A stretch of 64,000 bases of DNA from an uncultured Candidatus Saccharibacteria bacterium (GTDB lineage Bacteria > Patescibacteriota > Saccharimonadia > Saccharimonadales > UBA4665). The stretch covers positions 2,043 to 66,042 of the forward strand of contig CAZRPP010000001.1 in assembly GCA_964602145.1 (NCBI GenBank). The letters are read 5' to 3'. Made by a program: the position numbers and the translations under genes. This document shows positions 2,521 through 63,547 of the stretch, one piece after another. The notes beneath the pieces are model-generated. The model saw only the letters and a list, made by a program, of their open reading frames with translations. It did no database searches and had not been told where the DNA came from. Position 1 is the first letter of the stretch, and each line of letters begins with the position of its first letter.

Positions 2521-3801
2521 ATGAGTTTTGTAGATCGAGTTACGGTAACGGTGCAGGCGGGCGATGGTGGCCACGGCAAGCTAGGCTGGCGCCATGAAAA
2601 GTTTGTCTCTAAAGGCGGCCCGGATGGCGGCGATGGCGGCCACGGTGGCAACGTCATTTTAGTAGCCAGCCGTAACCAGGACACCCTAGCGCGCTTCCGT
2701 TTTGAAAAAGAAGTAAAAGCCCAACCCGGTCAGTCCGGCGGCGATTCCAATAAGCATGGCCGCAGCGGCCAAGACCTATTAGTCCAAGTGCCGGTGGGCA
2801 CGGTTGCTACCGGCCCAGAGGGCATTTTGGCCGATTTAACAGAGGACGGCCAAGAAGCTTTAGTAGCCCGCGGCGGCCGTGGCGGCTATGGCAACGCCCA
2901 CTTTTTATCCAGTACTCGCCAAGCCCCCAACTTTGCAGAAAAGGGCGAGCCGGGCGAGCGCCGCGAACTCAAACTAGAGCTCAAAATGATCGCCGATGTC
3001 GGCCTGATTGGCCTGCCCAACGCCGGCAAATCAACACTACTTAGCCGCATTTCCAATGCTCGTCCAGAGATTGCCAACTATCCGTTTACCACGCTGGTGC
3101 CCAACCTAGGCATGGCGCCGGTAGACAAAGACACTGCACTGTTGGTGGCGGATATCCCGGGCCTTATAGAAGGTGCCGCCGATGGCAAAGGTTTGGGACA
3201 CGACTTCCTGCGCCACGTTGAGCGTACTGCCGTGCTGCTCCATCTTATAGACGCCTACAGCGATGACCCCACCGGCTCCTATCAAACCATCCGCAAAGAA
3301 CTTGCTGCTTACAGCCCAGAGCTAGCCGCCCGGCCAGAAATTATCGTCCTCAACAAAATCGACGGCCTAGACGATGAAATTATTGCAGACATCAGCGAAC
3401 AGCTGCAGAAAGTAGCAGAGAGTGATGCACCGGTCATGCCCATTTCTGGCGCCGCTGGCACCGGCATTAAGCCGCTGCTCTACGCCGCCGCAAAATTAGT
3501 CCATGAAGAGCGTGCCGCCGCGGCAGCCCAGGCAGAGGAAGAAGCCAATAAACTACCCGTTATTACGCTGCCAGATACAGCGGCTGCCTGGCGCGTGGAA
3601 CGGCTTGGCCCCAAGACCTTCATGGTCACCGGCCGCAAGATAGAAAAATTTGCCCAGCGCACAGAATTTACCAACGATGAAGCCGTCCAGCGCCTACGCG
3701 ACATCCTCCGTAAAATGGGCATTATGCATAAGTTGGAGCGCGACAGTATTGAGGCTGGCAACACCATCAAAATCGCCGGCGTGGGTAAGCTCAAATATTG
3801 A
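2521..3801 (+). CDS. obg: GTPase Obg/CgtA
   Basis: Glycine-rich Obg fold (GGDGGHGG), G1 GLPNAGKST, G3 DIPGLIEGA, G4 NKID, and an OCT-like C-terminal domain. Confidence 0.95.
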   Translation: MSFVDRVTVTVQAGDGGHGKLGWRHEKFVSKGGPDGGDGGHGGNVILVASRNQDTLARFRFEKEVKAQPGQSGGDSNKHGRSGQDLLVQVPVGTVATGPEGILADLTEDGQEALVARGGRGGYGNAHFLSSTRQAPNFAEKGEPGERRELKLELKMIADVGLIGLPNAGKSTLLSRISNARPEIANYPFTTLVPNLGMAPVDKDTALLVADIPGLIEGAADGKGLGHDFLRHVERTAVLLHLIDAYSDDPTGSYQTIRKELAAYSPELAARPEIIVLNKIDGLDDEIIADISEQLQKVAESDAPVMPISGAAGTGIKPLLYAAAKLVHEERAAAAAQAEEEANKLPVITLPDTAAAWRVERLGPKTFMVTGRKIEKFAQRTEFTNDEAVQRLRDILRKMGIMHKLERDSIEAGNTIKIAGVGKLKY

Positions 3802-32448: not shown

Positions 32449-32478
32449 AAAAAGCACCCCTTTTGTGGGGTGCTTTTT
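32449..32478. terminator. Bidirectional rho-independent terminator
   Basis: AAAAAGCACCCC-ttttgt-GGGGTGCTTTTT, with A/T runs on both sides. Confidence 0.8.
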
Positions 32479-32481
32479 AGT

Positions 32482-32567
32482 TGGTGCGGATGAGAGGACT
32501 TGAACCTCCACGTACTTGCGTACACTAGTACCTGAAACTAGCGCGTCTACCATTCCGCCACATCCGC
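32482..32567 (-). tRNA. tRNA-Leu(CAG), type II, CCA encoded
   Basis: Manual cloverleaf: acceptor GCGGATG/CATCCGC, anticodon loop TTCAGGT, long variable arm. Near-identical layout to E. coli tRNA-Leu(CAG). Confidence 0.9.
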
Positions 32568-35086: not shown

Positions 35087-35112
35087 AAAAAAGACCTTTG
35101 CCAGGTCTTTAA
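35087..35112. terminator. Hairpin terminator between the CPBP gene and tRNA-Val
   Basis: AAAGACC-tttgcca-GGTCTTT flanked by A and T runs. Confidence 0.7.
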
Positions 35113-35189
35113 TGGTGGGTGATGAGGGACTCGAACCCCCGACCCTCTCGGTGTAAACGAGATGCTCTAGCCAACTGAGCTAATCACCC
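35113..35189 (-). tRNA. tRNA-Val(TAC), CCA encoded
   Basis: Acceptor GGGTGAT/ATCACCC, anticodon loop TTTACAC, T-arm GGGGG-TTCGAGT-CCCTC. Confidence 0.9.
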
Positions 35190-44681: not shown

Positions 44682-45038
44682 GTGGACACAGCATGTTTTT
44701 TCAGTTCAAGTCCCGAAGAATACACGCTTCTTCTAAAAAAGGTTATAGCGGCCGGTCCGGTTTCTGAGTTTAGTCATGGCGTAACCACTTATGTTAATGT
44801 TGACATGCAGGTCGCCGGCCAACACTTGGGCTTGCTAGGCGTGCGGCAGCCCGATGTCATCAGGCAAGAACGCGGCTACGGCGACTATTCGGTTGATTTT
44901 TTTGATATTCTCCTAGGGCAAATTGACAAAAATCCCTATGCCCAACCAATCACGAGCGGCCGCGGCAAAACGCTCATAGAGCTCAAGCACCCAGATTTTG
45001 ACGTACGGGGTTATGTCGTTAACGCACACGATCAATAG
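44682..45038 (+). CDS. Hypothetical protein, possibly the 3' part of a frameshifted gene
   Basis: GTG-start ORF. A 24-codon ATG ORF (44582-44656) in another frame, coupled to the ligA stop, overlaps the upstream open part of this frame. Confidence 0.35.
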   Translation: MDTACFFSSSPEEYTLLLKKVIAAGPVSEFSHGVTTYVNVDMQVAGQHLGLLGVRQPDVIRQERGYGDYSVDFFDILLGQIDKNPYAQPITSGRGKTLIELKHPDFDVRGYVVNAHDQ

Positions 45039-45111
45039 GCACGTTGTAAATAATACCCAATCTGTTAATTTCAAAAGTTAATAATTATTTCATGACTCGA
45101 TTCCTGAGCCG

Positions 45112-45120
45112 TGCTACTAT
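45112..45120 (+). promoter_or_regulatory. Extended -10 box (TGCTACTAT) for cassette copy A
   Basis: TGnTAnnnT lies 9 nt before ATG 45130. The same box (TGTTACTAT) precedes copy B. Confidence 0.5.
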
Positions 45121-45129
45121 GCGCGGGCT

Positions 45130-45546
45130 ATGGAGTTCAGATCTAAACATAACCGTTACGGACAGACATCGTATGTTGATGTCGTTAAATGGGCGAGAGC
45201 AATATATAAGCCCATGGCAGACAAAACAAAACGTCAGCCATATGTTAGGTCCGCCTATTTTGATAATCAAAAGATCTTATTAGCCACATTTTGGTTGCAT
45301 ATCAAGCCAAAGAACTCCACTGATAAGGCAAGGCGACTGAGGTTTTACTTGGCAGCAATCGATCTTATTGCTCATACAAAAATAGGGCCAGAGCTCAAGA
45401 AAAGTACAGGAGCTACAACGGCATACTATCGATTTTTTGGACGAACAAAAGATGGACATCCATTCGTAGTTCAAATTAAAGAAAACACAAAAACAGGCAG
45501 AAAAGATCTGATTTCAATATTTCCGGCATCAAAAAAAGACTTCTGA
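45130..45546 (+). CDS. Basic 138-aa protein of unknown function, paralog of 62954-63376 (copy A)
   Basis: Aligns end to end with copy B (RRQPYVRS, FW.H, AAIDLI, YYRFFGRTKDG..F.VQI, RKDL.S.F). Appears AT-richer than its flanks by eye. Confidence 0.7.
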   Translation: MEFRSKHNRYGQTSYVDVVKWARAIYKPMADKTKRQPYVRSAYFDNQKILLATFWLHIKPKNSTDKARRLRFYLAAIDLIAHTKIGPELKKSTGATTAYYRFFGRTKDGHPFVVQIKENTKTGRKDLISIFPASKKDF

Positions 45547-45620
45547 CCAATTTGTGGTTCAAAAGCCCACGGCCGAAAAGTCTTTAATGGTATTCTAGCA
45601 CGCCCAAGTATTGTGTCAAT
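45531..45620 (+). repeat. Structured 3' unit A1
   Basis: Outer stem AAAGACTT (45535-42) / AAGTCTTT (45578-85); inner stem GTGG (45554-57) / CCAC (45567-70). CACGGCCGAAA core. Tail ends in TGTCAA. Confidence 0.6.
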
Positions 45621-45705
45621 AAAAAAGACTCTCCGCCAGGTTATGTAACGTATTACACGGCCGAAAGCCTTTAGCTAATAATAACTAAACGCGAGAGCTG
45701 TCAAC
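45621..45705 (+). repeat. Structured 3' unit A2
   Basis: Outer stem AAAGACT (45624-30) / AGCCTTT (45666-72) with one A.C mismatch; inner stem TGTAA (45644-48) / TTACA (45653-57). Same CACGGCCGAAA core and TGTCAA tail. Confidence 0.6.
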
Positions 45706-45727
45706 AGGGGCTCGCTTACCGTATACT
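45699..45727 (+). promoter_or_regulatory. Putative corA promoter (TGTCAA-17-TATACT), leaderless
   Basis: The -10 box ends 6 nt before ATG 45734. The -35-like hexamer is the tail of unit A2. Confidence 0.4.
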
Positions 45728-45733
45728 AGAGGC

Positions 45734-46663
45734 ATGATCAAGTATTTCTACAAAAGCCTCCGCGCGGGTGATTTACAGGATTTGCCTATAAGCCGTCGCG
45801 GCGCGTGGGTACATGTAGAAACACCCACCAGCGAAGAGCTGGCGGAAATTCAGCAGCAATTCAACCTAGATCCCGGTATGCTTCAGGACGCCCTGGATGA
45901 AGACGAGCAGCCGCGGCTGGAAAAAGAAGATGGCATAACCTATGTCTATGTGCGTTTTGCGTACCGCAAAGCCAATGGCGATTTTGATACCGCGCCGCTG
46001 CTGCTCATTCCGCTGGCAGAAAACCTGGTTACTATTACGCCGCGGCCGTTGCCGGTGCTGGGGCAATTTACCAGCGGCCGTAAAGCTTTTGCTACTACCC
46101 AAAAAGCTAAATTGTTGCTGCAGATTTTGAGCAGCATTAGCGACCAGTACGACGTATTTATTAGCCAGACGACGCGCAGGATTAAAGGGGTGCGCGGTCG
46201 GCTCAAAGGGCACGGTATTACTAATCAGGACTTCTTAGATTTTGTAACCATTGAAGACGAGCTCAACGAGTTTTTGAGTGCGCTGCAGCCCAATAATGCC
46301 ACGCTTAGACGGCTGCTGGCCGGCAGACACTTGCCGCTGCACGAGGAAGACCAAGACCTAGTAGAAGACCTGCTGCTTAGCAACGAACAATCCATTGAAG
46401 GGTCGCGTGCCAACCTAAAGTCTATTACTAACATTCGCGATGCCTACACGGCCATTAGCTCCAACAACCTAAACCGCACCATTGAAATCCTGACCATGAT
46501 TACCGTAGCAGTGCAGATTCCTAACCTGTTCTACGCCATGTTTGGCATGAACGTACATGTGCCGTGGCAAAACGAGGTACGCGGTTTTTGGGTGGCAATA
46601 ATAATTAGCCTGGTCCCGCTGATTTTACTCTGGGTAATTGCTAAAAAACGTCGAATTCTATAA
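45734..46663 (+). CDS. corA: CorA-family magnesium/cobalt transporter
   Basis: YAMFGMNV (GMN motif) followed by two C-terminal TM helices. Confidence 0.85.
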   Translation: MIKYFYKSLRAGDLQDLPISRRGAWVHVETPTSEELAEIQQQFNLDPGMLQDALDEDEQPRLEKEDGITYVYVRFAYRKANGDFDTAPLLLIPLAENLVTITPRPLPVLGQFTSGRKAFATTQKAKLLLQILSSISDQYDVFISQTTRRIKGVRGRLKGHGITNQDFLDFVTIEDELNEFLSALQPNNATLRRLLAGRHLPLHEEDQDLVEDLLLSNEQSIEGSRANLKSITNIRDAYTAISSNNLNRTIEILTMITVAVQIPNLFYAMFGMNVHVPWQNEVRGFWVAIIISLVPLILLWVIAKKRRIL

Positions 46664-46699
46664 AAAAAGAACCCCGGGTTGGAGTTCTAGAAAACAATG

Positions 46700-52711: not shown

Positions 52712-52744
52712 AGAAAAGACCCAAGCTTTGCCTGGGTCTTTTCT
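52712..52744. terminator. Hairpin terminator abutting the tRNA-Gly 3' end
   Basis: AGAAAAGACCCA-agctttgcc-TGGGTCTTTTCT. Confidence 0.75.
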
Positions 52745-52746
52745 AT

Positions 52747-52822
52747 TGGTGCGGGTTAGGAGACTCAAACTCCTGGCCTCTTCCTTGGCAAGGAAGCGCT
52801 CTATCAACTGAGCTAAACCCGC
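52747..52822 (-). tRNA. tRNA-Gly(GCC), CCA encoded
   Basis: Acceptor GCGGGTT/AACCCGC, anticodon loop TTGCCAA, T-arm CAGGA-GTTTGAG-TCTCC-like. Confidence 0.9.
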
Positions 52823-60098: not shown

Positions 60099-62867
60099 AT
60101 GAAGCGCTACAATCCCAAAGAAATCGAACCCAAGTGGCAGGCAGAGTGGGCCAAAGACAAAATTTATGAGGCCGCGGACAGCTCCGACAAGCCCAAAAAG
60201 TACATTCTGGAGTACTTCCCGTACCCCAGCGGCGCGGCCATGCACGTGGGGCATGTGCGCAACTACACCATTGGCGATGCGGTAGCGCGTCACGCTCGCA
60301 TGACTGGCCATAACGTGCTGCACCCTATGGGCTGGGACGCCTTTGGCTTGCCGGCAGAAAACTACGCCATTAAGAACAACATCAGCCCCCAGCAGGCGAT
60401 TGCGGAAAACACCACCAAGTTTAAAAAACAGCTCAGCCAGATGGGTTTTAGTTACGACTGGTCGCGCGAAGTTAACAGCTCGGACCCTAATTACTACCGC
60501 TGGACGCAGTGGTTTTTCCTGATGCTTTTGGAGCGCGGCCTGGCCTACCAAAAAGATAGCTTGCAGTGGTGGTGCGACACGGACAAAACTGTCCTGGCCA
60601 ACGAGCAGGTAGAAGCTGGCAAATGCTGGCGCTGCGGCAACACAGTGGTCAAAAAACCTCTGAAGCAGTGGTTCTTCAAGATCACAGACTATGCGGACCG
60701 ATTAGCAGCAGATCTAGACAAACTGGACTGGTCCGACGCCATTAAGACCATGCAGCGCAACTGGATCGGGCGCAGCGTGGGTGCGGAGGTTGATTTTACT
60801 GTCGATGGTACTAAAGACAAGATTACTGTTTTTACTACCCGTCCAGACACGTTGTTTGGAGCTACTTTCATGGTGTTGGCGCCGGAGCACCCGCTTGTAC
60901 AACGTATAACTACTAATGAGCAACGATCAGCAGTAGAAAAATATGTTAAAAAAGCGACTGCCAAATCAGACGTAGAGCGCCAAGAAAACAAGGAAAAGAC
61001 AGGTGTATTTACCGGCGCTTATGCAATTAATCCAATCAACCAAGCAAAAATTCCGGTCTGGATTGCCGATTACGTTCTGATGGGCTATGGCACCGGCGCC
61101 ATTATGGCAGTGCCAGCTCACGATGAGCGCGATTTTGCCTTTGCAGAAGCCTTTGGCTTGCCAGTTCAAGAAGTAATCGTTCCAGCCGAAGCCAAATACA
61201 CAATTATTGAGAAAAGCCTGAATTGTGAGCAGCCAGCACAAGATTTAGAGGAGTTTGGTAGGCTGACTGTTCGAGAAAAATCCAAGAATTGGGGAAATAT
61301 TTGGGAGCTTTTTGTTGCTCCAGAGAATGAGCCATCGCTTCGTGCCTACTTGGAGCAAAATATGGTATACGAATCGACTTCTACTGGGCGGTATGCCGAC
61401 AGTATGAGTACATCAAATTGGGTAGTTATCGCAGGTAAGTCACTGCGTCTAACAAACATAAAGGCATTTGATGATTTCAAAAAACAGGCAGTACAGATGG
61501 GTATTCCTGCTGAGCAATTAGATTTAGTTCAGCCAACAGTACTCCATGGTGAGGGTATCATGATTAACTCTGGCCGCTATAACGACTTAAAAAGTGCTGA
61601 GGCGCGTGAAAAAATCGTCCAAGACCTGGCCGCTGAAGGTAAAGCCAAAGAAGTTACAAACTATAAAATCCGCGACTGGCTGATTTCTCGGCAGCGGTAT
61701 TGGGGCGCGCCCATTCCTGTTATTCACTGTCCTAAAGACGGCGTCGTGCCGGTGCCGGCTAAAGACTTGCCAGTCACGCTGCCAGAGGTAGAAAGTTACC
61801 AGCCAACGGGGGAGGGGACATCGGTTTTGGCCAGCGTTAAGGATTGGGTCAATGTAGACTGTCCAAAATGTGGTGGCCCGGCCAAGCGCGAAACAGACAC
61901 CATGGACGGTTTTGCCTGCTCAAGCTGGTACTTCTTGCGCTTTGCGGACCCGCACAACAACAAAGAGCCCTTTTCCAAAGACAAAGTGGATTACTGGTGC
62001 CCGGTGGACGACTATATTGGCGGCGCCGAACATGCCGTAATGCACCTGCTGTACGCCCGCATGTGGACCAAAGTTATGTTCGATGCCGGCATGATCAACT
62101 TTGATGAGCCTTTCACCGCCCTAAGAAACCAGGGCATGATCCTGGCGCCAGACGGCCGCAAGATGAGCAAGAGCTGGGGCAACACCATCACCCCGGACGA
62201 AATTATTGAGCAAGGTTACGGCGCGGACGCCATCCGCCTGATGGAACTGTTTATTGGCCCCTGGGACCAAAAAGCCAACTGGAGCGTGGAGGGAATGGGC
62301 GGCTGTTTCCGCTTCTTGCAGCGTGTCTGGACACTGGTACAAGAATTCGCTTCCGGCCAGGCCGGAGAAAACGAGCAAACCGCCGCGCTACAGCGCGCCA
62401 CGCACACGGCCATTAAGCGCGTTAGCCAGGACATGCAAGACATGGGCTTTAACACCGCCGTGGCGGCGCTTATGGAATTTGTTAATGAAATGTACCGGCT
62501 AAAGGCCGCAGAAAAAGGCTTTGCAGACCGCGCCACCTGGCAATCGGCGCTGGAAAGTTTGCTGCTACTCTTGGCGCCGTTTGCGCCGCACATAACAGAG
62601 GAGCTGTGGCACGATTTAGGCAACCAAGAATCCATCCATTTGGCGGACTGGCCAGTGTTTGACCCAGCTTTGCTGGTAGACCAAACAGTCACCTACGCCA
62701 TTCAGGTTAATGGCAAGCTGCGCGGCGAAGTCAGCGTGGCAGTAAACACGGATAAAGACGCCGTGGCAGTCGCCGCTCAGGAACAGGTCCAGCAGCACCT
62801 AGCCGGTAAAGACATCAAAAAGACGATTGTGGTGCCGGGCAAAATTGTCAATTTTGTGGCCGCCTGA
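60099..62867 (+). CDS. leuS: Leucine--tRNA ligase with an extra ~100-aa insertion
   Basis: HVGH (HIGH) and KMSKS motifs, CP1 editing domain (TTRPDTLFGATF). Extra segment at about 61184-61550. Confidence 0.95.
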   Translation: MKRYNPKEIEPKWQAEWAKDKIYEAADSSDKPKKYILEYFPYPSGAAMHVGHVRNYTIGDAVARHARMTGHNVLHPMGWDAFGLPAENYAIKNNISPQQAIAENTTKFKKQLSQMGFSYDWSREVNSSDPNYYRWTQWFFLMLLERGLAYQKDSLQWWCDTDKTVLANEQVEAGKCWRCGNTVVKKPLKQWFFKITDYADRLAADLDKLDWSDAIKTMQRNWIGRSVGAEVDFTVDGTKDKITVFTTRPDTLFGATFMVLAPEHPLVQRITTNEQRSAVEKYVKKATAKSDVERQENKEKTGVFTGAYAINPINQAKIPVWIADYVLMGYGTGAIMAVPAHDERDFAFAEAFGLPVQEVIVPAEAKYTIIEKSLNCEQPAQDLEEFGRLTVREKSKNWGNIWELFVAPENEPSLRAYLEQNMVYESTSTGRYADSMSTSNWVVIAGKSLRLTNIKAFDDFKKQAVQMGIPAEQLDLVQPTVLHGEGIMINSGRYNDLKSAEAREKIVQDLAAEGKAKEVTNYKIRDWLISRQRYWGAPIPVIHCPKDGVVPVPAKDLPVTLPEVESYQPTGEGTSVLASVKDWVNVDCPKCGGPAKRETDTMDGFACSSWYFLRFADPHNNKEPFSKDKVDYWCPVDDYIGGAEHAVMHLLYARMWTKVMFDAGMINFDEPFTALRNQGMILAPDGRKMSKSWGNTITPDEIIEQGYGADAIRLMELFIGPWDQKANWSVEGMGGCFRFLQRVWTLVQEFASGQAGENEQTAALQRATHTAIKRVSQDMQDMGFNTAVAALMEFVNEMYRLKAAEKGFADRATWQSALESLLLLLAPFAPHITEELWHDLGNQESIHLADWPVFDPALLVDQTVTYAIQVNGKLRGEVSVAVNTDKDAVAVAAQEQVQQHLAGKDIKKTIVVPGKIVNFVAA

Positions 62868-62938
62868 GGTCAAACCGCTTGAATCTTAAATAAAGATTAA
62901 CTTTTGGGTTTAGGCGTTTGGCCTAGACGCTTTACCCC

Positions 62939-62947
62939 TGTTACTAT
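62939..62947 (+). promoter_or_regulatory. Extended -10 box (TGTTACTAT) for cassette copy B, leaderless
   Basis: Ends 6 nt before ATG 62954. Matches the box of copy A. Confidence 0.5.
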
Positions 62948-62953
62948 GCAAAG

Positions 62954-63376
62954 ATGGATTTTTATCAATCTAAACTTGGCAGGGTAGCGGGCACGGACCG
63001 GAGCGAGGTTATGGCAAAAGCCCGTCTGTATTTTCAGGCGCTACAGAAGCGAAATGCAAGACGTCAGCCGTATGTGCGGTCAAAATTCTTTTACGGTGAT
63101 AAAGTTTTCATAAACATCTATTGGAATCACCTGGTCCAGAAACGCAAGAGCGAACAGTTAAAACGCTCAAGGCTACTGCCAGCTGCTTTGGACCTGCTCA
63201 GGAATGCAACTATTTCACCGACTATCCTACAAAACTACTCAGACAAACAACACAAGTATTTTAGATTTAAGGGGAGAACAAAAGACGGAACTATATTCTA
63301 TGTGCAGGTACGCCAAAATCTCAGAACTGACCGAAAAGATTTTATGTCAGCTTTTATGGCAAAAGGATACAAATAA
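62954..63376 (+). CDS. Basic 140-aa protein of unknown function, paralog of 45130-45546 (copy B)
   Basis: Shares motif blocks with copy A (RRQPYVRS, YW.H, AALDLL, YFRFKGRTKDG..FYVQV, RKDFMSAF). Appears AT-richer than leuS and rpmF by eye. Confidence 0.7.
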   Translation: MDFYQSKLGRVAGTDRSEVMAKARLYFQALQKRNARRQPYVRSKFFYGDKVFINIYWNHLVQKRKSEQLKRSRLLPAALDLLRNATISPTILQNYSDKQHKYFRFKGRTKDGTIFYVQVRQNLRTDRKDFMSAFMAKGYK

Positions 63377-63460
63377 AAAAGACCTCCGCTGGGTGGCGTA
63401 AAAACCACGGTGCCGAAGCCTTTGCTAGTATCTTAACCAACCAGCGAGTAGTTGTCAAAC
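63375..63460 (+). repeat. Structured 3' unit B1
   Basis: Closest to A2: AAAAAAGAC.TCCGC..GG...CACGG.GCCGAAGCCTTTGCTA...CGAGTAGTTGTCAA. Inner stem GTGG (63393-96) / CCAC (63405-08). Confidence 0.6.
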
Positions 63461-63547
63461 AAAAGAACTTTTGACGCTAGGGTAGCCTTGAAACTACGGG
63501 CCAAAAGTTCATACATTAGTATGTGCGTATAATAACGCGGTGTCAAT
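63461..63547 (+). repeat. Structured 3' unit B2
   Basis: Outer stem GAACTTTTG (63465-73) / CAAAAGTTC (63502-10), perfect 9 bp. Inner stem GTAG (63482-85) / CTAC (63494-97). Tail ends in TGTCAA. Confidence 0.55.

Follow-up and report, generated by a model that had tools for sequence, protein, structure and literature searches.

The 64,000-nt stretch of an uncultured Candidatus Saccharibacteria genome analysed here (contig CAZRPP010000001.1; the whole stretch is hereafter called the window) carries two paralogous genes for small basic proteins, copies A and B, which lie in the ligA/corA and leuS/rpmF neighbourhoods, respectively, and whose products are 36% identical. Directly behind each of them stand two head-to-tail units of ~88 nt, and we show below that each unit constitutes a predicted stand-alone small-RNA (sRNA) gene, read from the minus strand and convergent on the protein gene. 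Protein gene and RNA gene together are shown to form an autonomous module of ~0.55 kb that recurs across Patescibacteria, often in multiple copies and in unrelated neighbourhoods; the window holds two paralogous modules, and in each of them the RNA gene is duplicated in tandem. The features are listed here, with promoter scan scores out of 12 and, at the end, the promoter of the neighbouring corA gene.

45092–45120, plus strand: promoter of protein gene copy A (ATGACT, 17-nt spacer, extended −10 box TGc-TACTAT), read from the sequence
45130–45546, plus strand: protein gene copy A, 138 residues, isoelectric point (pI) 10.3, uncharacterised Patescibacteria family
45531–45585, minus strand: predicted sRNA A1, hairpin and U-run; variant core without the G·G mismatch, 5′ end estimated from the −10 box
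45592–45619, minus strand: predicted sRNA A1 promoter (TTGACA at 45619–45614, 16-nt spacer, TGc-TAGAAT with the box at 45597–45592); 11/12, with TG extension
45621–45672, minus strand: predicted sRNA A2, hairpin and U-run; canonical CGGC/GCGG core, 5′ end estimated
45675–45704, minus strand: predicted sRNA A2 promoter (TTGACA at 45704–45699; −10 box ambiguous)
62918–62947, plus strand: promoter of protein gene copy B (weak −35 box TTGGCC; TGt-TACTAT with the box at 62942–62947), read from the sequence
62954–63376, plus strand: protein gene copy B, 140 residues, pI 10.6
63375–63423, minus strand: predicted sRNA B1, hairpin and U-run; canonical core, abutting the stop codon of copy B
63430–63458, minus strand: predicted sRNA B1 promoter (TTGACA, 17-nt spacer, TAAGAT); 10/12
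63461–63511, minus strand: predicted sRNA B2, hairpin and U-run; variant core
63518–63546, minus strand: predicted sRNA B2 promoter (TTGACA, 17-nt spacer, CATACT); 10/12
45698–45727, plus strand: putative corA promoter (CTGTCA, 18-nt spacer, TATACT); 9/12

Anatomy and orientation of the RNA units

The features that an earlier, sequence-only reading of this DNA ascribed to the units are all there. The two units behind copy A occupy 45531–45619 and 45621–45704, and the first starts inside the last codons of the gene, its A-run (45531–45537) lying in AAA AAA GAC TTC TGA with the stop codon at 45544–45546. The outer stem of the unit is formed by AAAGACTT/AAGTCTTT and the inner stems differ in sequence while remaining complementary (GTGG/CCAC in A1, TGTAA/TTACA in A2); the conserved core CACGGCCGAAA is repeated exactly after 88 nt and AAAAAAGACT exactly after 89 nt; and both units end in TGTCAA (45614–45619 and 45699–45704). 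The second pair, at 63375–63547, follows the same plan. Tandem Repeats Finder calls no array here, the unit copies being only ~60–67% identical, and the interval 45547–45733 is free of open reading frames (ORFs) of at least 20 residues, apart from a 28-residue, TTG-initiated ORF that enters from the gene end (45476–45562, minus strand).

The same reading had placed these structures in the 3′ tail of the gene's own transcript, and on this point the data disagree with it, since it is the opposite strand whose fold has been under selection. As given on the plus strand, the units fold no better than shuffled sequences, and their reverse complements fold clearly better. For the hairpins alone, the minimum free energies of A1, A2, B1 and B2 are −10.7, −8.5, −10.5 and −14.8 kcal/mol on the plus strand (z = −1.1, −0.6, +0.25 and −2.5) and −18.3, −19.9, −20.2 and −16.7 kcal/mol on the minus strand (z = −3.4, −4.0, −3.5 and −3.9), where folding is thus about twice as good. 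Read along the minus strand, each unit opens with TTGACA, continues after 15–18 nt with TAGAAT, TATTAT, TAAGAT or CATACT, and ~7 nt past this −10 box enters an interrupted hairpin of ~50 nt that is followed by a run of 4–7 U. The promoter scan reports promoter-like sites at three of the four window units, the fourth having TTGACA with an off-spacing −10 box; for A2, candidate −10 boxes are TATTAT at a 15-nt spacer and TATTAG at 18 nt. What had been described as a ~35-nt tail ending in TGTCAA is a minus-strand promoter (TTGACA, 15–18-nt spacer, TAnnnT), and since the tail is the unit's own promoter, the units are separate genes rather than pieces processed from a longer RNA. With a promoter, a hairpin and a terminator in each, the units are predicted to be complete sRNA genes, and their product is shown as a predicted RNA of ~50–55 nt, made of one long interrupted hairpin with a U-run that would serve as its own intrinsic terminator. 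These are the sequence features of the generic class of sigma-70-promoted, Rho-independent sRNA genes (−35 and −10 boxes at 16–18 nt; hairpin plus U-run). At the junction of the two genes, the U-run, which is the A-run of the plus strand, overlaps the stop and the last Lys codons of the protein gene, as seen for A1 and copy A.

We consider it highly improbable that the units act instead as plus-strand elements of the 3′ untranslated region (UTR), processed into discrete RNAs and donating a −35 element to corA. Their start within the last codons, their conservation and their structure would fit such a role, as would the overlap of a promoter-like corA site with the last TGTCAA, which indeed lies 17 nt from the TATACT box 5′ of corA. 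The donation of the −35 element is possible but weak, as the plus-strand TGTCAA matches TTGACA at 2 of 6 positions and the promoter scan prefers CTGTCA over it. Against the processing model, both the folding energies and the asymmetry of G-U over A-C cells described below favour the minus strand, and every supposed tail is a minus-strand promoter. Furthermore, each locus has other genes downstream, and the conservation can therefore not be explained by a role in neighbours' promoters. The corA promoter, whose TATACT lies 6 nt upstream of the corA ATG (45734), stands back to back with that of A2 and is a neighbour outside the module.

The RNA family, its conserved core and its tie to the protein gene

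To describe the RNA family, we built a covariance model (CM) from 40 related units and scanned the window with filters off. The scan retrieves the four units only, at 39.6–55.1 bits and E-values of 1e-6 to 2e-10 (A1, 45533–45591, 39.6 bits; A2, 45622–45678, 50.9 bits; B1, 63375–63430, 55.1 bits; B2, 63461–63518, 46.6 bits), and the next match, which scores 18 bits, falls on the plus strand of a unit. In the minus-strand alignment of the 40 units, 92.6% of the cells are paired in a consensus hairpin, with compensatory changes in 13 of 17 pairs (101 cells), a level reached by none of 500 shuffles; slid controls are 46–56% paired. Across 73 distinct CM matches, 130 G-U cells stand against 18 A-C cells, an excess that argues for selection on the minus-strand RNA. 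The outer stem covaries freely and the inner core is nearly invariant (92–100% conserved), consisting of 5′-CGGC/5′-GCGG with a G·G mismatch (C16 99%, G17 92%, G18 99%, G82 100%, C83 93%, G84 95% and G85 97%); a 5-bp inner stem and a U-rich loop of 6–8 nt are conserved as well. Promoter scores of at least 10/12 are found in 36 of 75 distinct units, as against 1.5% of random 75-nt windows, a TG precedes the −10 box in 35 of the 75, and a run of at least five U occurs within 11 nt in all units but one. Searched with Rfam 15 at the gathering threshold, the whole window returns eight tRNAs only, the region 45450–45760 has no Rfam match at E-values up to 10, and a canonical unit in locus L070 reaches at best 32 bits against a gathering score of 70. 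In one subgroup of the RNA genes (L019–L028, L030, L031, L037, L039, L045, L047, L052, L053, L082 and L086), an extra small 5′ hairpin (AGACA...UGUCU) lies between the −10 box and the main hairpin and would extend the RNA to ~80 nt.

Elements made of an A-run, a hairpin and a T-run also occur beside tRNA genes of the window (35088–35116, 32449–32482, 52714–52747 and 46664–46696), where they score 14–17 bits on both strands and look like ordinary bidirectional terminators. Intrinsic bidirectional terminators likewise combine, where transcription units converge, an A-run and a U-run with a hairpin that contains G+C, and one could suppose that the units serve as terminators or insulators only, the inward promoter being incidental and the short RNA functionless. 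Such a role would be in line with T-rich runs on both strands (4–7 T in 12 plus-strand positions past the hairpin in most loci) and with the location of the element, always at the end of the gene. It would not lead one to expect an internal motif that hardly varies, a consensus promoter dedicated to the element and directed at it, selection on one strand or association with a single protein family; the plus-strand hairpins of the window resemble shuffles (z = −1.1, −0.6 and +0.25 for A1, A2 and B1), the ordinary terminators of the window stay at the low CM scores just given, and a second unit in tandem would be pointless. We therefore regard termination as very unlikely to be the whole of the function.

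The association between RNA and protein was assessed from both sides. Starting from the protein, a scripted check places a hairpin gene directly after the stop codon in 61 of 67 assessable loci, and in two more (L057 and L061), where the script had over-extended the stop, a CM match lies at the end of the protein match, which brings the count to 63/67; the remainder are three loci with divergent hairpins that have promoters and one pseudogene with the hairpin gene just upstream. Each of the extra CM matches in L065 and L069 lies behind an additional paralog. Starting from the RNA, we searched metagenomes for the exact core CGGCCGTGGTTTATAYACCAC and took 80 of 117 stretches, 79 of them assessable: a family gene ends 21–71 nt before the core in 57 (21–48 nt in all but one), and the other 22 are orphans, situated after unrelated genes or in intergenic DNA. 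A strong promoter is kept in 9 of 20 orphans versus 42 of 52 gene-adjacent units. The dependence is asymmetric, in that the protein practically never occurs without the RNA and the RNA sometimes occurs alone. Orphan hairpin genes are found directly after genes that, read by eye and without a family search, encode an MqsA-like zinc-finger antitoxin-type protein (L118), an XRE-type helix-turn-helix protein (L165), a MazG-like protein (L151) and a small hydrophobic membrane-like protein (L100/L105).

Taken together, these results partly support the sequence-only reading, which was right about a conserved structured RNA tied to the paralogs and wrong about the strand, the transcript of origin and the meaning of TGTCAA. 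The structured units it proposed do covary in the 40-unit family alignment, and all four CM matches in the window follow the two paralogous genes. It had named units after many unrelated genes, as in a generic REP or terminator family, as the outcome that would overturn it; the window CM scan gives no such picture, and with the RNA-seeded loci it also speaks against membership in a REP/BIME-like or generic terminator family.

Most loci have a single RNA gene, and tandem pairs are found at both window loci, in L029, in L110 and in the two loci most closely related to copy A, L014 and L015. The L014 and L015 units are ~93% identical to their window counterparts and keep their promoters; the A2 unit with its promoter is retained in L015 and, up to the contig edge, in L014. 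Each window locus combines one canonical unit (A2, B1) with one variant that lacks the G·G mismatch (A1, B2), and the order of canonical and variant is opposite at the two loci. Between the distal units and the proximal hairpin there is no complementarity, which means that the distal units cannot act by pairing with the normal mRNA 3′ end, and yet they keep the fold, the core and the promoter.

The mRNA of the protein gene in turn appears, from its upstream sequence, to be leaderless. In 29 of 50 loci, a TAnnnT box, often TG-extended, precedes the ATG by 4–11 nt, versus 11.5% of random positions, and a Shine-Dalgarno-like sequence is present in 4 of the 50 only. In the window, the promoter of copy A ends 9 nt upstream of the ATG, which would make the mRNA leaderless or nearly so, and the −10 box of copy B lies 6 nt before its ATG, which likewise predicts a leaderless mRNA. 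In corA and both family genes alike (45698–45734 and 62942–62956), TAnnnT precedes the ATG by 6–9 nt and a Shine-Dalgarno sequence is lacking, and leaderless mRNAs seem to be common in the source genome.

Antisense action in cis, as in type I toxin–antitoxin systems, has to be considered in this light: the RNA would pair with the mRNA through a kissing loop, form a duplex and direct its decay by RNase III, without any recognition between protein and RNA. The genes are convergent, with full complementarity of the RNA to the predicted mRNA 3′ end, the U-run of the RNA lies over the stop codon, and on a leaderless mRNA the 3′ end would be the only untranslated handle; the layout is moreover known from par/Fst–RNAII and from systems of the SR4/SR6 type (PMC7472228, PMC3543317, PMC5848175). 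Pairing, however, needs no conserved primary sequence, and yet the core is 92–100% conserved across phyla; the fold is selected on one strand only; and the distal units and the 22 orphans, which have no cognate mRNA end, keep the fold and often the promoter. Predicted pairing with the mRNA 5′ end does not differ between cognate and non-cognate combinations (−17.26 versus −17.37 kcal/mol), and this lack of cognate-specific pairing also argues for a function beyond antisense pairing. Indeed, the conserved primary sequence of the core, the one-strand selection and the functional-looking distal and orphan copies together argue for a function beyond antisense and termination, and we regard cis-antisense action alone as a distinctly unlikely explanation.

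The protein family and the mobility of the module

Searches of Pfam, NCBIfam, PADLOC and PHROGs with both window proteins and their relatives return noise only, and 60 family members have no Pfam match. A single-sequence search finds 8 relatives and a profile search 1,482 clusters at 90% identity; among the matches listed, all are unnamed or 'hypothetical', apart from P0096, labelled 'acyl carrier protein phosphodiesterase' by JGI. When 1.84 billion representatives are searched exhaustively with the profile, 307 clusters (50% identity) emerge at E ≤ 1e-3, nearly all of them free-standing proteins of 130–145 residues, and the genome matches are almost all from Patescibacteria, or candidate phyla radiation (CPR), bacteria (Saccharibacteria, Peribacteria, Uhr-, Doudna-, Woese-, Falkow- and Parcubacteria). 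With a median pI of 10.2, the family is very basic, and its invariant residues are R35, F44, K48, H57, R69, R101, F102, G104, F112, Q115 and S129, among them basic and aromatic as well as further polar side chains. An AlphaFold2 (AF2) model of high confidence (pLDDT 95.2, pTM 0.88) shows a mixed alpha/beta protein, with a helix, a beta-hairpin, three helices and a four-stranded antiparallel sheet in this order (4 helices and 6 strands in total) and with no long hydrophobic stretch evident. A profile search of the PDB gives nothing below E = 0.13, and Foldseek finds no PDB match below E = 0.1, ToxN-like and barnase/RelE-like RNases included. Against BFVD, Foldseek reports only weak similarity (E = 7e-4 to 1e-2, TM-score ~0.5) to an internal part of 'large polyvalent' or MuF-type phage proteins, which we do not take as homology. 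A candidate PD-(D/E)xK nuclease motif, E97...Q115-x-K117, was rejected, as K117 is not conserved (it is Arg in copy B) and the motif is backed by no fold match.

Three matches (P0178, P0197 and P0208) are of another kind, with a divergent copy of the domain forming the C-terminus of STAND/NACHT-type NTPases; the N-terminal nuclease of these fusions is HNH in P0178 (L089:203–2260) and Mrr-like in P0197. In the fusions R35, Y38 and H57 are replaced, and no hairpin lies downstream. Among public gene calls, a protein identical to that of copy A (P0001) is given 172 residues (45130–45650), with TGA read as Trp and 34 residues added; this read-through over the sRNA genes looks like an artefact of a genetic code with sense TGA.

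No conserved neighbouring gene that could be a third component was found across the loci compared. Besides the ligA/corA and leuS/rpmF neighbourhoods of the window, the module is found at truB/rpsO and in a GmrSD/type ISP restriction island. In oral Saccharibacteria (L023, L024 and L025, ~2946–3524), a stretch of 544–579 bp that begins ~40 nt 5′ of the ATG and extends to the RNA gene's −35 box is 94–97% identical within unrelated flanks, which suggests transfer or mobility of the module. Several contigs with oral modules are labelled Actinomyces, for example L028 (210 kb, from an A. oris isolate assembly), and probably represent epibiont DNA. In L069 (171–1983), two modules, one with its gene at 171–584 and its hairpin at 586–642 and the other at 1514–1927 and 1928–1983, flank a gene for a tyrosine recombinase/integrase-like protein (695–1510). 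Among IMG/VR viral contigs, no relatives of the family were found.

Comparison of 44682–46110 with the closest relatives of copy A gives a mosaic of identities. An ORF upstream of the family gene is 98.3% identical to that of L014 in nucleotides and 97% in protein, and holds the same position; the spacer is 98.9% identical in nucleotides to those of the closest relatives; the family gene is 79.5% identical to that of L014, with the first ~60 codons nearly identical and the rest diverged (73% in protein); the RNA units are 92–93% identical in nucleotides to those of L014 and L015; and corA is 84% identical to that of L015. As judged from these values, the mosaic suggests that recombination has taken place, with a junction within the protein gene. 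The upstream ORF, between ligA and copy A (44682–45038, plus strand), has a GTG start, encodes 118 residues and is without a family match. Near copy B, the leucyl-tRNA synthetase gene (60099–62867, plus strand; 922 residues) seemingly contains a long insertion relative to typical bacterial LeuRS.

Mobility raises the question of a DNA-level element, in which the hairpin would be a single-stranded DNA (ssDNA) site, as at the ends of IS200/IS605, in REP/RAYT or in attC, and the protein a transposase or recombination factor. A discrete unit of ~0.55 kb in unrelated contexts, a protein of TnpA/RAYT-like size and the one case beside a tyrosine recombinase (L069) would be compatible with it, and a strand-asymmetric G·T pairing would fit an ssDNA hairpin too. 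We nevertheless find it scarcely probable, given that each module has one hairpin, at one end, with no CM match upstream of the gene, where IS200/IS605-like or REP/RAYT elements would have hairpins at both ends together with an HUH/Y1 transposase. HUH/Y1 and recombinase families are unmatched (no Pfam match and no significant PDB fold match), there is no conserved His-x-His, W55-x-H57 with Trp at 55 being conserved instead, target duplications and terminal repeats are not seen, and the conserved promoter argues for transcription.

Candidate functions and related systems

We tentatively propose, as a reading that falls just short of an even chance, that the module is an autonomous pair of a protein and an antagonist RNA, a toxin–antitoxin-like or conflict element, as judged from its sequence features. 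In this model, the RNA would be the dedicated partner of the protein, which probably binds it through the CGGC/GCGG core with its G·G mismatch and through the inner stem-loop, and the RNA would act on the protein as an antitoxin-like antagonist. The strong independent promoter would keep the RNA in excess, and its full complementarity to the mRNA 3′ end may in addition allow it to destabilise the protein's mRNA, so that the layout of a convergent type I system would be combined with the logic of type III. That the RNA binds and inhibits the protein is something we infer from the conserved core, the basic protein and the strict co-occurrence of the two. A conflict or addiction element would be in line with the one-sided dependence, the multi-copy and patchy distribution, the variable contexts, the pseudogenes, the orphans and the mosaic divergence, all of which argue for it.

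Several observations weigh against this proposal. The protein bears no resemblance to known toxins in Pfam, NCBIfam, PADLOC, PHROGs, PDB sequences or fold comparison; the location of the domain at the C-terminal 'sensor' position of nuclease-armed STAND NTPases is easier to reconcile with a binding domain than with a toxin; housekeeping genes (ligA, leuS, truB/rpsO) are frequent neighbours of the module; and the viral contigs of IMG/VR yielded no copy. The A-run, hairpin and U-run could partly be a simple bidirectional terminator, and the E/R/H-type residue pattern is only suggestive as a sign of catalysis.

The absence of similarity to known toxins, together with the STAND copies in sensor position, which lack a hairpin and have R35, Y38 and H57 replaced, makes a non-toxic ribonucleoprotein (RNP) the main rival of the antagonist-RNA proposal. 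Such a particle would have a regulatory or housekeeping role, with the RNA serving as a cofactor or scaffold or, alternatively, with the protein acting as a dedicated chaperone or stabiliser of RNA. Co-occurrence, the conserved core and the basic protein fit an RNP equally well, and the frequent location among housekeeping genes, the sensor or binding position in the fusions and the lack of toxin similarity all favour it. Patchy, multi-copy distribution over variable neighbourhoods, a near-identical module in unrelated flanks, pseudogenised copies and orphan RNA genes, and mosaic, divergent sequence between close relatives are, however, patterns seen more typically in selfish or conflict elements than in core machinery, and we deem an RNP unlikely.

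In its layout, the module resembles convergent type I loci with a shared bidirectional terminator or a 3′ overlap, namely par/Fst–RNAII of pAD1, Fst-Sm/srSm, bsrG/SR4 and yonT/SR6 (PMC7472228, PMC3543317, PMC5848175). Both consist of two compact genes, with a small antisense RNA that is convergent, has a strong promoter of its own and carries a terminator hairpin complementary to the mRNA 3′ end, and both occur in multiple copies at variable chromosomal sites. The convergent RNA gene of the module, with its U-run over the stop codon and its hairpin complementary to the 3′ UTR, would overlap the mRNA as a type I antitoxin does if the mRNA reaches through the hairpin; cognate pairing with the mRNA 5′ end is not seen. 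Type I toxins are, in contrast, small hydrophobic membrane peptides, usually of fewer than 60 residues, whereas the module proteins have 136–140 residues (138 and 140 in the window, with pI 10.3 and 10.6), appear soluble and are very basic. Furthermore, the module RNA consists of the terminator hairpin only (~50–55 nt), with a core conserved across phyla and without 5′ direct-repeat pairing regions, and the orphan and tandem RNAs argue for action in trans.

With type III systems, such as ToxIN, CptIN and TenpIN (PMC8860590, PMC12283969), the module has in common a protein of ~140–170 residues, a small structured RNA proposed to neutralise it by binding, the possibility of tandem copies and the logic of RNA in excess. 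The type III antitoxin is an upstream, same-strand array that is processed by the toxin, whereas the module RNAs are encoded 3′ of the protein gene in the opposite orientation, under individual promoters, and most module loci have one unit; no similarity to ToxN, AbiQ, CptN or TenpN emerges from Pfam, PADLOC or PDB sequence searches, or from Foldseek below E = 0.1. Because it lacks defining features of both, we assign the module to neither type I nor type III. To antiviral STAND NTPase sensors of the Avs/NLR-like kind (PMC13581612), it is linked through the divergent domain copy at their C-terminal position; in the window, the domain is instead free-standing and has an RNA partner, and the fusions have lost R35, Y38 and H57 and have no hairpin. 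A bolder version, which we hold to be unlikely in its entirety, would see in the protein a new fold that recognises the hairpin through the CGG/CGG G·G core, in the module a new, Patescibacteria-specific class of RNA-antagonised conflict systems, and in the fusions a recruitment of the domain as a STAND sensor. If this is true, the STAND receptors concerned would sense an RNA or components of the module rather than a phage protein.

In the tiny genomes of Patescibacteria, most lineage-specific genes lack an explanation, and to our knowledge almost nothing is known about the small RNAs of these bacteria. A full-text literature search found no description of the protein or the RNA, and we thus describe a large Patescibacteria protein–sRNA module without a match in the libraries or the literature searched. 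For genome annotation, it matters that gene callers with sense TGA run through the RNA genes, and that the units would be mistaken for a 3′ UTR or terminator on the wrong strand. If the module is an RNP, it would provide a new RNA-binding domain with a defined target. If it is an RNA-antitoxin system, it would enrich the toxin–antitoxin repertoire with a toxin fold and an architecture that are both new, and offer a handle on genome stability and conflict in these episymbionts, human oral Saccharibacteria included.

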